Below, one piece after another: positions 5,005-34,888 of a stretch of DNA of 64,000 nt; the first letter of the stretch is position 1, and each line of letters begins with the position of its first letter. The DNA lies in the NCBI GenBank assembly GCA_002255575.1, contig NCAT01000003.1, positions 126,341 through 190,340 on the forward strand. Reading direction: 5' to 3'. The stretch comes from Acidocella sp. 20-57-95 (lineage in GTDB: Bacteria; Pseudomonadota; Alphaproteobacteria; Acetobacterales; Acetobacteraceae). A program made the position numbers and the translations under genes. The notes beneath the pieces were generated by a model that saw nothing but the letters and a program-made list of their open reading frames with translations, made no database searches and was not told the DNA's origin.

Positions 5005-6318
5005 ATGCCCCATACGGCAACCAGCAAAAACATCGGCAGCGCCACGCTGAGCTATAACGGTAAAACGGCAACTCTCCCTGTGTTGGAAGGCTCAATGGGG
5101 CCCGCCGTTGCCGATATCCGCAAAATCCAGGGTGATTTGGGGGTTTTCACCTTCGACCCTAGCTTCGGTGCCACCGCCTCCTGTGAAAGCTCGATCACCT
5201 ATATCGATGGTGATGAAGGCGTATTGCTCTATCGCGGTTACCCGATCGACCAGCTGGCCGAACATTCAACTTTCCTCGAAGTTGCGCATTTGCTGCTGTT
5301 CGGGAACCTGCCCACCACCGCTGAACTGGATCATTTCACCCACGGCGTCACCATGCACACCATGTTGCATGAGCAAATCCGCCGCTTCTGGGATGGGTTC
5401 CGCCGCGATGCCCACCCGATGGCGATGCTCTGCTCGGTCGTTGGCGCCATGTCTGCCTTCTACCCGGACAGCATCGATATCAACGACCCGCGCCAGCGCG
5501 AAATCAGCGCCTACCGGATGATCGCTAAAATCCCTACCATCACCGCCTGGGCGCATAAATACAATGTTGGGCAGCCCTTCATGTATCCGCGCAATGATCT
5601 CAGCTATTCTGAGAACTTCCTCTACATGTTCCATGCTGTGCCGCCGCAAACCTATGTGCCGAACCCGATTCTCACACGCGCCATGGACCGCATCTTCATC
5701 CTGCACGCCGACCATGAGCAGAACGCCTCGACCTCCACGGTGCGTCTGGCCGGCTCCACCGGTGCCAACCCATTTGCCTGCATCGCCGCCGGCATCGCCT
5801 CACTCTGGGGTCCCGCCCATGGGGGTGCCAATGAGGCCGTGCTGAAAATGCTCGCCGAGATTGGCCATAAGGACAATATCCCGGCCTTTATAGCGCAGGT
5901 GAAAGACAAGAACTCCCATGTCAAACTGATGGGCTTTGGCCACCGGGTTTACAAAAACTTTGACCCGCGCGCGAAAATCATGCAGCGCACCTGCTACGAA
6001 GTGCTCGGCGAACTTGGCATCAAGAACGACCCGATGCTCGACCTGGCCATCGAGCTTGAAAAAATCGCCCTCGAAGACCCCTACTTCGTCGAGCGCAAAC
6101 TCTACCCGAACGTGGATTTCTACTCAGGCATCATCCTGAAGGCGATGGGCTTCCCCACCACCATGTTTACCCCCATCTTCGCGCTCGCCCGTACCGTCGG
6201 CTGGATCAGCCAGTGGATGGAAATGATCGAAGACCCGCAACAACGCATCGGCCGCCCCCGGCAGGTATACACCGGCGCCCCAACCCGCGACTACGTGCCC
6301 ATCGATAAGCGGGGCTGA
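5005..6318 (+). CDS. gltA: Citrate synthase (type II)
   Basis: [35 protein letters not shown]. Confidence 0.98.
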
Positions 6319-6348
6319 TGCTCAAGGGGTTGGGTTGGTGGGGTTGTG

Positions 6349-6538
6349 AAGAAAGGCCAAGGGGCTCTGCCCCTTGGAACCCCGCTAAGGGCGCGGCCCT
6401 TAGAACCTTTAAGGTTAAGAAAAACGGGCGCGCCGCGGTGTTGAAACACCAATGGACGCCCGTTTTTTTTAACCTTCAAAAATGGTTTCCAAAGGCGAGC
6501 CTTTGGCGGGGTCCAGGGGCAGAGCCCCTGGCCTTCTT
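6349..6538. repeat. Composite palindromic element, copy 1 (MITE/RPE-like)
   Basis: Imperfect inverted arms of about 57 bp, each with two hairpins, around a long central hairpin; homologous to 16205-16369. Confidence 0.85.
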
Positions 6539-6568
6539 AACCGTCCTACCAACCAACCCTCCTCGAGC

Positions 6569-7624
6569 ATGACCCGTTCATCGGGCACCATGGCGCGGTT
6601 GCTGCGCTGGCTGGCGGAGTCGCCAGCGCGGAATTTGGTGTTTGGGCTGGTTTATATGGTGGTTGTCGTTGCGGGGGCGACGGCGGCTTATGTAGCGGAT
6701 GGCTGGAGCTGGGGGGATGCGTTTTACTTCGTCATCATTACGGTATTTACGGTCGGCTATGGTGAGCTTCACCCGGTTGCGACGTTTGACCTGCGTTTTA
6801 TTACCATTGCCACGATTATTTTGGGCTGTACGGGGATTATTTTTCTCACCGGCGCGCTCGTGCAGTTCATTACCATTGCACAGATTCAGCTTTTGCTGGG
6901 AACCAAACGAATGAAAACGCAGATCGAAAAGATGGCTGGCCATGTGATTATTTGTGGCTATGGGCGTATTGGCCAGATGTTGGCCGATGAGTTGAAAGCG
7001 GGCGGCACTGAATTTGTGGTGCTGGAGTTAAATGAGCAGCGTTTTCATGAATCGGTGGCGGCGGGCAACCTGACAGTTCGCGGCGATGCGACTGACGAGA
7101 CGGTTTTGCATTCGGTTGGCATCGCAAAGGCGCGGGCATTGGCGAGCGTCGTGCCGAATGATGCGGCGAATGTGTTCATTACCTTATCGGCGCGCAACTT
7201 AAATAAACAGTTGGAAATTATCGCGCGCAGCGAGGCCCCGAGTACCAAAAGTAAATTGCTGCAAGCGGGCGCCAACTCAGTGGTGGAGCCCACCCATATT
7301 GGGGCCGAGCGGATTGCGCAGCTTATTATTTTTCCGCGCACATCATCATTCACTGATGGCTCGGACCGGATGCGCACACTGGGGATGGGGTTGCGCACGC
7401 TGGGGCTGGATTTAGAGGTGATGGCGGTGGCGGCCGATAGCCCCCTAGCGGGCGCCACCATTGAAACCGCTGAACATCAGGCAAGCGGCAGTGTGTTCGT
7501 GATTGCAGTGAACCGTAAAAATGGCGAAACCCTTACCCGCCCTGACCCCGCCACCATTATTGAAGCGGGCGACGGCGTGGTTGTTATTACCCGGTCTGGA
7601 CGCAGCACCCCGAAAATCAGCTAA
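6569..7624 (+). CDS. Potassium channel with TrkA-N/TrkA-C (RCK) domains
   Basis: Two TM helices around TVFTVGYG filter, ICGYGRIG RCK motif; start 6569 or 6590. Confidence 0.9.
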   Translation: MTRSSGTMARLLRWLAESPARNLVFGLVYMVVVVAGATAAYVADGWSWGDAFYFVIITVFTVGYGELHPVATFDLRFITIATIILGCTGIIFLTGALVQFITIAQIQLLLGTKRMKTQIEKMAGHVIICGYGRIGQMLADELKAGGTEFVVLELNEQRFHESVAAGNLTVRGDATDETVLHSVGIAKARALASVVPNDAANVFITLSARNLNKQLEIIARSEAPSTKSKLLQAGANSVVEPTHIGAERIAQLIIFPRTSSFTDGSDRMRTLGMGLRTLGLDLEVMAVAADSPLAGATIETAEHQASGSVFVIAVNRKNGETLTRPDPATIIEAGDGVVVITRSGRSTPKIS

Positions 7625-8760: not shown

Positions 8761-8776
8761 TTTGAGGTTGAGGCGC

Positions 8777-8806
8777 GTAAGGCCAGGGGTTATGCCCCTG
8801 GCCTTA
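8777..8806. repeat. Collapsed copy of the palindromic element; probable bidirectional terminator hairpin
   Basis: TAAGGCCAGGGG-TTATG-CCCCTGGCCTTA between convergent genes; first 13 nt identical to 16205-16217. Confidence 0.7.
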
Positions 8807-10372
8807 GCCCCAAAACAACCGGCTTTTGCGAAAGGCGCGCCAGGTGTCCGAGAGCTTGGCGTCATCGGCAGTGGCGCTGTGGCTGCACCAGCCAAGGATG
8901 ATGCCGGCGGCCCGGGTATCATTGCCGGTAAGGTGGCTGACGGTTTCGGTGGCGGTGATAAGGTCGTTGAAGCGGCCGAGCTCGTCTTGCAGGGCGGCGG
9001 CGGCTTTTAAGTAGGCGCGGGTTTGCGATTTGCTGGGAAAAAGCGGGCCGAATAGATCGGCAGCGTAGCGGAGCTTTTTTAAGTCAATCCGCAGCTGGTG
9101 GCGGTCATGCGGCGCAAGGGTGGCCAGATGCTTGCCACGTTTGAGAAGTTTATTGTGCAGGCGGGCGAGGTTTTGGCTGGCAAAATCCTGCGCGGGGGCG
9201 GTCAGGCGCGGCAGCGCTTCGCCGGATAGCGCATTGCGCCAGCCATAGCGGGCGACGAAGGCTTGTACTGAGAGCACGAAGCGCGTGGTGCTGGGGGCAG
9301 CAAGAAGCGCGCGTACTGTTTCGTAAGCGGCGGCGCGGCGGCGCTCACAATCGGCCAGGATGGCCGCAAATCCGGGCTCGTTCGGGAAAGCGGCAACCGG
9401 GCCTTGGCGCAGCAGGTTTAAAAAAACATCGAGGTTGCGGGCCTCTCCCATCAGGGCCGCGACATTTTTGGCTTCGGCGCGAAAGACAAGGAATTCCGGC
9501 GCGGGAAAGGCGTGGTGGAAAAGCCCGAGCATGGCCCTTAAGCGGCGCATTGCCACGCGCATCTGGTGAACCGCGCCGATTTGGTCGCCATCTTCAAAGG
9601 CCGGCCAGTTGGCGGCGAATTGTGTGAGGCAGCCATTAATCCCCTGGGCGATCGCTTCATCAACGGTAGGGTTGCCTTGAAGGTCAGTCTTGGCACGCGC
9701 GGCTTCAGGGGATTTGCCGGTTGCAAGCATAGCCCCGCGGTCTGACTTTGCGAGGCTGCTTAAACGAACTGGATATTGTTCGGCGAGTGCAATGCCGAGC
9801 CGGTACAAATCGGCACTATCGCCCGCTTTCAGCTCCATTTCGATTTCGCGGATCGGCCGGCTGATACTACCTGCAATGATGAAACCGGAATCGAACGCCA
9901 CCTCAATATCGCTGGTGGCAGTCTGCACGCGCTGCGTGAGGCGGCGGATATCAGTTTCATAGACCGCAGTGAGAACCCGGTCTTCGATGACGTCTGCGAT
10001 CATCGCGGCGACATTGGGGCCAAATAAAGCTGGGTCGGGCTGGTTGTTGAGGGTGGGGATTTCAATTTCGCCACGCTCGAACAGACCGCCCGACAGACCG
10101 CCACTCCATTTCAGTGTCATCATATAGCCGCGGCGCTGGCCACGCATACGGAGGACCATTTTGTGGCGCTGCAAATCACCACGGGGCGTATCAAAATACA
10201 CGGTGCGCAGGCGTTTGGAGGGTAAGCGCCGTCCGGCAGCGCCAAGCGCTGACCATTTTTGGCTGGCCTTAAAGCCGGAGTCGCTTACCAGGAATTTTAG
10301 CTCAAGCTCGCGGTTTATCGGCTTCAGGAGCGGAATAATTGGGCTGACCGGAACCAGATTGGTATCGAGCAA
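8804..10372 (-). CDS. CYTH plus CHAD domain protein
   Basis: ELELKF and EIEMELK CYTH motifs; HQMRVAMRRLR and HQLRIDLKKLRY CHAD motifs. Confidence 0.9.
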   Translation of the reverse strand: MLDTNLVPVSPIIPLLKPINRELELKFLVSDSGFKASQKWSALGAAGRRLPSKRLRTVYFDTPRGDLQRHKMVLRMRGQRRGYMMTLKWSGGLSGGLFERGEIEIPTLNNQPDPALFGPNVAAMIADVIEDRVLTAVYETDIRRLTQRVQTATSDIEVAFDSGFIIAGSISRPIREIEMELKAGDSADLYRLGIALAEQYPVRLSSLAKSDRGAMLATGKSPEAARAKTDLQGNPTVDEAIAQGINGCLTQFAANWPAFEDGDQIGAVHQMRVAMRRLRAMLGLFHHAFPAPEFLVFRAEAKNVAALMGEARNLDVFLNLLRQGPVAAFPNEPGFAAILADCERRRAAAYETVRALLAAPSTTRFVLSVQAFVARYGWRNALSGEALPRLTAPAQDFASQNLARLHNKLLKRGKHLATLAPHDRHQLRIDLKKLRYAADLFGPLFPSKSQTRAYLKAAAALQDELGRFNDLITATETVSHLTGNDTRAAGIILGWCSHSATADDAKLSDTWRAFRKSRLFWG

Positions 10373-15854: not shown

Positions 15855-16193
15855 ATGGACAACCCCGTCTTCGCCGAAATTCAGTCCTACATCGACTCCT
15901 CGCCGGTCATGCTGTTCATGAAAGGCACACCGATGTTCCCGCAGTGCGGCTTCTCCGCCCGGGTCATCCAAATCCTCAAACATGCCGATGTGCCCTTCAA
16001 AACCGTCAACGTGCTCGAAAACCCCGAGGTGCGCGAAGGCATTAAGGAATTCTCCAGCTGGCCAACCATCCCGCAACTCTACGTCAAAGGGGAGTTCATT
16101 GGCGGCTGCGATATCATCACCGAAATGTACCAATCCGGCGAGCTGCAAACGCTGCTAACGGAAAAAGGTATCTCCCATAACGCGGCTGCCTGA
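15855..16193 (+). CDS. grxD: Monothiol glutaredoxin
   Basis: PQCGFS and WPTIPQLY. Confidence 0.96.
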   Translation: MDNPVFAEIQSYIDSSPVMLFMKGTPMFPQCGFSARVIQILKHADVPFKTVNVLENPEVREGIKEFSSWPTIPQLYVKGEFIGGCDIITEMYQSGELQTLLTEKGISHNAAA

Positions 16194-16204
16194 GTGGCGG
16201 CTAG

Positions 16205-16369
16205 GTAAGGCCAGGGGCTCTGCCCCTGGACCCCGCCAAAGGCTTAGCCTTTGGAATCAATTTGTAGGGACTAAGAAAACCGGGTGCGCCGAGGTGTTGA
16301 AACACCATTGGGCACTCGGTTTTTTTAATCTTGGCGGGGCCCAGGGTTGGCGCTCCTGGCCTTCCTTAC
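16205..16369. repeat. Composite palindromic element, copy 2 (right arm partly deleted)
   Basis: GTAAGG...CCTTAC termini, the same two-hairpin arm and the same central GGTGTTGAAACACC hairpin as 6349-6538. Confidence 0.85.
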
Positions 16370-16391
16370 CGGCACTCAAGACACCCGCCTT

Positions 16392-17633
16392 ATGAGACTT
16401 GCCTTCATCACCGATGAGTTGCCGCGGGCGGGGGTGGCCGGGCATTTGGCGTTTAATGCGGCGGTAACCCATTGGCTGCGGGCGCAAGGGCACGAGGTTG
16501 TGGTTGTGTTGGTACGGCCCCGCCTGAGATGGCCGGTGGAGCGGTTTATAAATGGGGCAGTGGTTGGGCCGGGGGTGGTTTATTGGGATGGCCGGGTGAT
16601 TTGTTGGGGGCCGCGTCATATCGCAGCCATTCTGGCCAAGCGGGCTTTGGCGTCGTTGCCGACATGGTTGGGCGAGATGCTGCGCACCCGTGGGCGGGGA
16701 CCACGTTATGGCATTGTCGATGCGATTTTGGGGGCTTTTTTAACGCCAGTGCAGGTTCGGTGGTGTGCGGACAAGCTGACAGCATTACAACCTGATGCGG
16801 TGCTGGTGGATACGATTTTCCGCAGCCCGGTGCTGGATGACCCACAGATTTGCCGAATGCGCCGTGTTATATTCACGCATGATTTGTTTCACCAGCGACA
16901 CCGCATTTTGGCGAGTGCGGGGTACCGCCTACATCCGGCAGAACTCTCGCGTGAGATGGAAGCGGTTTATTTAAATAAGGCGGATGTGATTTCGGCGATC
17001 CAGCCGGCTGAGGCGGCTGAGATCCGCACCATGTGCCCCAACCGGCAGGTGATTGTGAACCCCATGCCAGCGATCCCCTGCCCGCGCCCGGCGCATGTGC
17101 AAAGGCGGTCTGAGCGTCTGGTGTTTATTGGTGGCGATACGCTGCCCAACCGGGATGGTTTGCTGTGGTTCTTTGAGGAAATATGGCCGCGTTTGCGCAG
17201 TTGGCGCGCCACAGTGACATTGGATTTAGTGGGCGATTGCATTCAAAGTTTGCGATCCGTGCCGACAGGGGTTCATAGGGTTGGCCGGGTGCCCGATTTA
17301 GCCCGAATACTTCACGAGGCCCGTTTGGCGATATCCCCTTTACGTGTCGGCTCCGGGCTCAAGCTGAAAATTCTCGATTATGCCAGGCATGGCTTGAGAA
17401 CTGTGGCCACCCCAATGAGCCTAGAAGGTTTTGCGGACGACCCCCAGGCGCCCTTCATCACGGCGTCTGACAGTCTCGCATTTTCCGAGGCCATCCAAAG
17501 ATACCTTGCGGCGCTTGTATCAATTACGGATGAAGCGGAAGCCTTGCGGTATGTTGAACGCCATTACGGTATCGACAAATCATTCGGAAGCTTGACTGCG
17601 TATCTGGCGGCACCGATCAGACAGACGGTTTAG
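16392..17633 (+). CDS. Glycosyltransferase family 4 (GT-B)
   Basis: MRLAFIT start, LVFIGG..PNRDGLLWF, GSGLKLKILDY. Confidence 0.8.
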   Translation: MRLAFITDELPRAGVAGHLAFNAAVTHWLRAQGHEVVVVLVRPRLRWPVERFINGAVVGPGVVYWDGRVICWGPRHIAAILAKRALASLPTWLGEMLRTRGRGPRYGIVDAILGAFLTPVQVRWCADKLTALQPDAVLVDTIFRSPVLDDPQICRMRRVIFTHDLFHQRHRILASAGYRLHPAELSREMEAVYLNKADVISAIQPAEAAEIRTMCPNRQVIVNPMPAIPCPRPAHVQRRSERLVFIGGDTLPNRDGLLWFFEEIWPRLRSWRATVTLDLVGDCIQSLRSVPTGVHRVGRVPDLARILHEARLAISPLRVGSGLKLKILDYARHGLRTVATPMSLEGFADDPQAPFITASDSLAFSEAIQRYLAALVSITDEAEALRYVERHYGIDKSFGSLTAYLAAPIRQTV

Positions 17634-34811: not shown

Positions 34812-34888
34812 CGGAGCGTAGCGCAGCCTGGTAGCGCACCAGTCTGGGGGACTGGGGGCCGTGGGTTCGAATCCCGCCGCTCCGACCA
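34812..34888 (+). tRNA. tRNA-Pro (GGG)
   Basis: CGGAGCG acceptor stem, CCAGT/ACTGG anticodon stem with CTGGGGG loop, GTTCGAATC T-loop, encoded CCA. Confidence 0.96.

Follow-up and report, generated by a model that had tools for sequence, protein, structure and literature searches.

The 64,000-nucleotide stretch of Acidocella sp. 20-57-95 analysed here (the window) carries two full copies of a large palindromic repeat, which we call the element. Copy 1 lies between the citrate synthase gene gltA and the potassium channel gene kch and is crossed by an open reading frame of 84 codons (ORF84). Copy 2 lies between a glutaredoxin gene and a glycosyltransferase gene. We suggest, with a probability of about 0.55, that two separate things overlap at 6318-6572, namely a non-coding repeat and a relay frame of the gltA-kch junction, which is independent of the element. 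The copy 1 locus is built as follows.

gltA, 5005-6318, plus strand: citrate synthase of 437 amino acids (PF00285), with the stop TGA at 6316-6318.
ORF84, 6318-6572, plus strand: relay frame of 84 codons, with ATG 6318-6320 within TGATG 6316-6320 and TGA 6570-6572 within the kch ATGA 6569-6572.
kch, 6569-7624, plus strand: K+ channel with RCK domains, 351 amino acids; its start ATGACC is kept in relatives.
Full mosaic palindromic element, copy 1, 6321-6567, no strand: imperfect palindrome including its tails.
Outer hairpin A, 6357-6377, no strand: CCAAGGGGC-TCT-GCCCCTTGG, with a GT-rich tail (6321-6354) before it.
Inner hairpin C, 6385-6403, no strand: CTAAGGGC-GCG-GCCCTTAG.
Central hairpin, 6420-6470, no strand: A-run 6420-6424, stem, invariant core GGTGTTGAAACACC at 6437-6450, stem, T8 run 6463-6470.
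Inner hairpin C', 6489-6506, no strand: CCAAAGGC-GA-GCCTTTGG.
Outer hairpin A', 6513-6531, no strand: CCAGGGGC-AGA-GCCCCTGG, with a CA-rich tail (6534-6567) after it.

The original prediction described this arrangement correctly, with the TGATG at the gltA stop, the 84-codon frame and its TGA at 6570-6572 inside the kch ATGA. Both ends of the frame are at coupling spacings, -1 for TGATG and -4 for ATGA, and the same or equivalent spacings are found in L027, L030, L072, L073 and L077. These are the two commonest coupling spacings, and no overlap is more frequent in prokaryotes than -4 (PMC12548453). Gene calls in metagenome-assembled genomes (MAGs) also place the kch start at 6569, which agrees with the N-termini of the relatives. 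A second in-frame kch ATG, at 6482, is inside the element and unconserved. No Shine-Dalgarno motif precedes kch in any lineage, which is uninformative, since 52-75% of the called genes checked also lack one (only 25-48% have it).

The organism is known from MAGs, and the sequencing runs that contain this Acidocella are mine-drainage and aquatic metagenomes. The window version of the copy 1 region is backed by three MAGs, with one base different (6478, A to T in L003). Public assemblies (runs X1-X4, window 6250-6650) break inside the element, their contigs ending at about 6380 and resuming at about 6507. Repeat copy counts and repeat sequences in MAGs are therefore to be taken with caution.

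The evidence for a frame that belongs to the junction comes from the relatives. A relay frame, which starts in overlap with the gltA stop and reaches the kch ATG or ends at most 11 nucleotides (nt) short of it, occurs in seven of the eight lineages with a fully readable spacer, and in one of these seven it is fused with kch. It begins with TGATG, TAATG or GTGA and ends in ATGA or 6-11 nt before the ATG. The frame is present in the window, L025, L072, L073-76, L027/29, L030/31 and L077-80; in L034/35 it forms a fusion with kch. The spacers are as follows.

Window and L025: 250 nt, with the element.
L027 and L030: 67 nt, element-free, with a small terminator (-12.8 kcal/mol, U5); TGATG, 23 codons in both, kch ATGA.
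L077-80 (A. aminolytica group): 104 nt, with its own terminator; TAATG, 32 codons, stopping 6 nt before the ATG.
L072: 241 nt, with a diverged element; GTGA, 82 codons, ATGA.
L073-76: 256 nt, with an element that has another centre and flipped arms; TGATG, 81 codons, stopping 11 nt before the ATG.
L034/35: solo hairpin; TGATG with its ATG in frame with kch, the hairpin being read through and the frame fused to kch.

These spacers of 67, 104, 241, 250 and 256 nt are otherwise unalignable, and three different element variants are found among them. The TG after the gltA stop is present in most lineages, and the bases that follow it differ in every lineage. The 5' halves of the 67-nt spacers differ between L027 and L030, with a frame of 23 codons in each. 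The three long spacers (241, 250 and 256 nt) are all 1 mod 3 in length despite the differing orientation and centre of their elements. The relay peptides are unrelated between lineages. In two lineages with partial upstream sequence, L033 and L036, the +1 frame is open for all 73 and 123 nt available. L070, whose upstream gene is off the contig, was left unscored; its kch start is not ATGA and its +1 frame has stops. A hairpin lies within the relay frame in every spacer, in several of them with a U-run, and this fits ribosomes that override the terminator and then hand over to kch.

Shuffled sequences reach to within 15 nt of the ATG with probabilities of 0.086 (window), 0.119 (L072) and 0.031 (L073). 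For the two complete long spacers outside the discovery, L072 and L073, the joint null is about 0.004, to be read with the reservation that the lineages share ancestry, so that null probabilities may not multiply, and that the pattern was found post hoc. Among 35 background pairs of tandem genes, spaced 30-320 nt apart, the long spacers (>200 nt) are bridged in 2/2 cases at gltA-kch versus 0/6 elsewhere; short tandem spacers are bridged in about 15-20% of pairs. Hence, judged from its distribution, the relay frame looks like a property of the junction, kept with or without the repeat in most Acidocella relatives.

In L034 (10001-10090, also in L035) the solo hairpin is inside the called kch coding region and is read as ...QGQGASLPGL.... 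This fused arrangement may be the ancestral direct coupling of gltA and kch. In L025 (9835-9963, equal to window 6316-6444) the gltA stop TGA is changed to GGA (GGATG), and gltA, called with 479 amino acids, is extended by 42 codons that cross the element's left half and end at the core loop TGA. This is either a natural, repeat-encoded C-terminal extension or an artefact of assembly or variant.

Found in Acidocella, the element is a mosaic palindromic repeat that does not code for protein. It is about 200-250 bp in size and consists, in order, of a GT-rich tail, an outer hairpin, ACCCCGC, an inner hairpin, a spacer, the centre, the mirror modules and a CA-rich tail. The centre of copy 1 reads A5-CGGGCG...GGTGTTGAAACACC...CGCCCG-T8. 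As a single strand, copy 1 is predicted to fold into one hairpin of about 120 bp (-165.5 kcal/mol, z = -13.7), and for copy 2 the values are -135.2 kcal/mol and z = -9.5. The predicted fold of copy 1 pairs AUGCUC 6318-6323 with GAGCAU 6565-6570 and would thus bury the kch AUG at the hairpin base. In part, this ATG/CAT pairing at the base is coincidental, TGATG and CATGA being ancestral motifs.

The central hairpin has a folding energy of -25.3 kcal/mol with U8 on the plus strand and -27.1 kcal/mol with U5 on the minus strand in copy 1, and of -31.0 kcal/mol with U7 in copy 2. With its GC-rich stem directly followed by a U-run, the predicted structure resembles a bidirectional intrinsic (Rho-independent) terminator; a simple terminator scan misses it because the stem is interrupted. 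The central stem covaries among seven copies, where 12 pairs are changed on both sides. The covariation score is 0.348 versus 0.175 in shuffles, none of 500 shuffles reaches it, and slid pairs give 0.06-0.14. Against the Rfam covariance models the element has no match at gathering score, and only chance-level hits at E <= 1.

We suggest the following sequence of events at the gltA-kch junction. That the frame is translated, and that this acts on termination and on kch, is inferred from sequence.

Step 1: Ribosomes that finish gltA would reinitiate at ATG 6318 and translate through the element.

Step 2: The translating ribosomes would occupy the left arm and so prevent both the terminator and the 120-bp hairpin, with the kch AUG at its base, from forming.

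Step 3: The ribosomes would hand over to kch at the ATGA. Only versions of the element through which the frame stays open could last at this junction.

The original prediction had supposed that ribosomes may bridge the element in both copies. As a feature of the junction, such bridging is plausible at copy 1; it is unsupported for copy 2 and for the element family. If the frame is translated, the locus shows how a large palindromic repeat of very high stability can be tolerated by a genome in the middle of a coupled gene pair. The locus would also be a natural case of two chained stop-start overlaps that move ribosomes across 250 nt and an intrinsic terminator.

A known parallel is the attenuation of pyrBI in E. 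coli, where a short frame runs through an intrinsic terminator to the start of the structural gene and a close ribosome blocks the hairpin. Here too a frame passes through a terminator-like hairpin and ends beside the start of a structural gene. However, entry would occur by reinitiation from the upstream gene instead of a leader ribosome-binding site, and no nucleotide-sensing pause is implied. The two relay-frame junctions use the spacings of ordinary translational coupling (-1 TGATG and -4 ATGA); unlike in ordinary coupling, they are chained by an unconserved 84-codon frame across a 250-nt palindrome.

Several points weigh against an element-independent relay frame, besides the shared ancestry and the post hoc discovery mentioned above. 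L071 (TGACC, ATGG) is without the relay arrangement, being the sole such lineage among the readable ones. The nulls for the short spacers are 0.86, 0.48 and 0.66 and thus nearly uninformative. The gltA stop is lost in L025, and therefore termination-reinitiation at that ATG cannot work there. The frame of L073 ends 11 nt short of the kch ATG. The T8-tailed central hairpin might terminate most transcripts whatever translation does. Finally, kch could own a promoter inside the right arm of the element; a simple scan of that arm found no sigma-70 promoter, alphaproteobacterial promoters being poorly covered by it.

A stronger version, which we put forward only tentatively, is that terminator-bearing mobile or recombining palindromes settle in a coupled junction only if the relay frame stays open, and that the frame then is a translation-dependent switch. 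With ribosomes close behind gltA, neither the terminator nor the 120-bp hairpin would form and kch would be made; with lagging translation, transcription would end after gltA. The three element variants at one junction would then be three independent outcomes of the same filter.

Pure chance is a serious but rather unlikely explanation. On this reading no ribosome translates the frame: the gene-end motifs TGATG and ATGA were inherited, and a GC-rich palindrome poor in stops happens to be open in one frame. In dinucleotide shuffles the particular frame is open with P = 0.068 for copy 1 and 0.117 for copy 2, and any of the three frames with 0.20 and 0.33, respectively; in six family copies 4/36 frames are open. 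The stops of the left arm are concentrated in a single frame, which leaves two frames open there anyway. The TGATG and ATGA at gltA-kch are also found in the element-free L027/L029 and L030/L031, and the glycosyltransferase ATGA also in L030; these motifs therefore belong to the flanking genes, and ATGA means merely that the second codon begins with A. The peptide shows no sign of selection, and the finding was picked out for looking open. All of this agrees with chance. It is opposed by the long spacers of the two test lineages L072 and L073, which are also open from an overlapping start, by the shared 1 mod 3 lengths, by the TG conserved after the gltA stop in otherwise unalignable spacers, and by the lack of bridging in all six other long tandem spacers. 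We note that these four observations are in agreement with an element-independent relay frame of the junction.

Long-range unfolding of the RNA, with the frame untranslated, is a quite improbable alternative. A ribosome at the gltA stop would melt the base of the 120-bp hairpin (6318-6333 with 6555-6570) and expose the kch AUG. The predicted pairing of AUGCUC with GAGCAU would allow this, the element is within about 20 nt of both the upstream stop and the downstream start in 4/4 tandem contexts, and the model is established for other gene pairs (PMC12548453). However, it gives no account of the open frame or of the 1 mod 3 spacer lengths, it is inapplicable to the element-free 67-nt spacers, and the basal pairing on which it relies is partly coincidental, as said above.

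The general version of the original prediction was that elements of this family evolved as sequences translatable in one frame, as Rickettsia palindromic elements are, so that any copy can couple its flanking genes. Copy 2 is built as follows.

Monothiol glutaredoxin gene (grxD), 15855-16193, plus strand: stop TGA at 16191-16193.
Full element, copy 2, 16190-16391, no strand: right inner hairpin deleted, a C'-type hairpin on the left.
Parts of copy 2: outer hairpins 16211-16229 and 16341-16359, core 16293-16306, T7 run 16320-16326.
Stop-free frame over copy 2, 16159-16395, plus strand: TGA 16393-16395 inside the glycosyltransferase ATGA (ATG 16392).
Glycosyltransferase (group 1), 16392-17633, plus strand: start ATGAGA; its counterpart in the relative L030 starts with ATGAAG.

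We confirm that copy 2 is stop-free from 16159 to the TGA at 16393-16395, which overlaps the ATG at 16392, and that the frame has no upstream ATG, its possible starts being only CTG 16186 and the internal GTG 16294. Near the upstream stop the frame has no ATG, GTG or TTG. At the same site L030 carries a solo form, consisting of one outer hairpin with both tails (L030:19773-19846), and this form has no bridging frame. The difference between the full and the solo form would fit recombination between outer hairpins, as in solo long terminal repeats, or insertion into one such hairpin. Because copy 2 lacks a start codon, the solo form in L030 is unbridged and the prior for an open frame is about 0.12, its open frame is probably due to chance. 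The predicted pairing of copy 2 (16172-16193 with 16375-16400) covers the last seven glutaredoxin codons and the glycosyltransferase ATG; this may be either a coincidence or a palindrome growing outward.

The two copies were also said to be open in the same frame. This stands for 86 of the 203 aligned bases, namely the RGSAP stretch and the central 67 nt, and fails for both arms, which are read in different phases because of indels between the copies. The agreement in the centre is forced, since only one frame avoids both the conserved TAA in TTAAGAAAA and the TGA of the loop GTTGAAAC; any open frame through the centre must read ...VLKH.... The peptides of the two copies are alignable, as had been claimed, and this likeness follows from the homology of the copies as DNA.

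The six family copies scored do not bear out a family-wide open frame, with 4/36 frames open and two copies closed throughout. The latter are L006, between an upstream gene and proC, and L007, between rplS and leuC. Both are full copies flanked by tandem minus-strand genes; they have stops in all six frames and no start overlapping the upstream stop. The central VLKH frame does have the fewest core-strand stops in all copies and is fully open in both window copies and in L011. Yet with L006 and L007 closed, copy 2 without a start codon, a codon phase shared over less than half of the alignment, the left arm of L072 read in another register than that of the window, and a mixed orientation of the core to the flanking genes, the general version is very improbable. 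Open frames across such repeats are usually meaningless, the meaning being set by the junction and not by the repeat, and this is a warning for annotation.

The comparison of the window with L025 shows what is conserved in copy 1. There are no indels over ORF84 and 23 substitutions, of which 13, 4 and 6 are at the first, second and third codon positions; 14 codons differ nonsynonymously and 4 synonymously, against 11:119 in gltA and 39:141 in kch; no purifying selection on the peptide was detected in this pair. The element core (6345-6540) is identical at 188/196 positions (96%) and the tails at 36/51, where the neighbouring third codon positions are identical at 84% in gltA and 68% in kch. 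What is constrained is therefore the nucleotide sequence or structure and not the peptide; recent exchange of the element is the alternative. A search of 5.8 billion proteins gave no homologue of the 84-residue peptide, Pfam had no match to it at E <= 1, and gene callers leave ORF84 uncalled in MAGs. ORF84 as a gene is thus rejected on the protein search, Pfam and the substitution pattern. Although it has an ATG start and 84 codons and is open in L025 too, the chance that 6318-6572 encodes a functional small protein is negligible in view of these results and of the unrelated peptides at the junction in other lineages.

The element family is known to us from 8-9 full copies. These are the two of the window, L025, L006, L007, L011, L024, L072 and L073 (L073-76); L006 is an Acidocella MAG, L007, L011 and L024 come from one metagenome, and L025, L072 and L073-76 represent the gltA-kch site. 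Partial copies are found at the gltA-kch site of L033 and L036, and solo copies in the window, L030, L034, L070 and L033. The solo element of the window (8761-8815, no strand) consists of a GT-rich tail, a single hairpin at 8783-8801 and a CA-rich tail and lies between convergent genes. All copies seen are intergenic. A pattern scan of genome contigs, in which the window's own genome was unmatched, gave one real copy and two chance matches, and a scan of metagenomes gave 3 real copies among 18 matches. In viral contigs there were 32 chance matches and no real copy, and in plasmids only a 34-nt hairpin match, in Pseudoroseomonas. In metagenome reads the outer hairpins have a depth of about 25-30x the contig baseline and the core 3-6x.

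The family is mosaic. The centres of L072 and L073 differ, the arms of L073 and L011 are flipped, and L007 and L036 carry an extra small hairpin. When L011:124-353 is turned so that its arms have the orientation of the window, the loop reads GGTGTTTCAACACC and not GGTGTTGAAACACC, which is one example of a flip/flop-like inversion. Full and solo forms are related at orthologous sites. Comparison of filled with element-free sites showed no target-site duplication and no clean empty site; the element-free gltA-kch spacers of L027/L030 are unrelated in sequence to the element flanks, the 67-nt spacer having been replaced and not interrupted.

Searching the literature for palindromic repeats in Acidocella or Acidiphilium, we found no description of this family. 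It shares several features with REP/BIME/REPIN sequences of enterobacteria and pseudomonads and with RIME of rhizobia: these are intergenic mosaics of short GC-rich palindromes, often at gene 3' ends, in which paired inverted units form a long hairpin and singles outnumber doublets. Unlike in REP, the outer hairpin of Acidocella has no GTAG or CGTC tag and is preceded by (G)TAAGG, and the unit is far larger (about 200-250 bp) with a dedicated central terminator-like hairpin. Repeats with CGTC, one of the two classical tagged REP super-families, are reported to be missing from Acetobacteraceae, the host family, in a published survey (PMC3733652).

The Correia elements of Neisseria and the ERIC elements of enterobacteria are of similar size, and here as well the whole unit is an imperfect palindrome that is co-transcribed with its neighbours. 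Both are reported as terminators and RNase III substrates. Terminal inverted repeats, as in these miniature inverted-repeat transposable elements (MITE), are present in the Acidocella element; however, it has no visible target-site duplication or clean filled/empty site, and its internal modules are themselves hairpins. We know of no cognate insertion sequence for it. With neither the REP tags nor the target duplication of a MITE, it is filed only as a new mosaic palindromic repeat of the general REP/RIME/Correia/ERIC kind. The Rickettsia palindromic elements (RPE) are comparable in that a palindromic repeat sits inside an open frame without closing it, as in the kch N-terminus of L034 and the 42 gltA codons of L025. 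Unlike in RPE, the host frame at the gltA-kch junction is a relay of arbitrary sequence and no conserved protein, and most family copies in Acidocella are not open.

Parts of the element were also seen elsewhere. The nrdA-nrdB spacer of L071 (2923-3122; 200 nt, as compared with 56-119 nt in relatives) is half an element, with an outer hairpin, ACCCCGC, an inner hairpin and a terminator-like hairpin, and no relay frame runs from the nrdA stop. On the Pseudoroseomonas cervicalis plasmid NZ_CP115854.1 (L037:1400-1540) four GC-rich hairpins stand in a row, joined by ACCCCGC/GCGGGGT motifs, between convergent rpoD and a hydrolase gene. The last of them has the stem of the window's outer hairpin and differs in one loop base, so that the hairpin module extends beyond Acidocella.

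An ATG that overlaps the purC stop (ATGA) in L030 (15940-16007) opens a frame of 22 codons, which ends 1 nt before the purS start. This is possibly a second short relay frame, or else due to chance, given the length of the spacer. The 20 genes of the window that were scanned are housekeeping genes, and a tRNA gene at 34812-34885 is the sole Rfam match in the window at gathering score.

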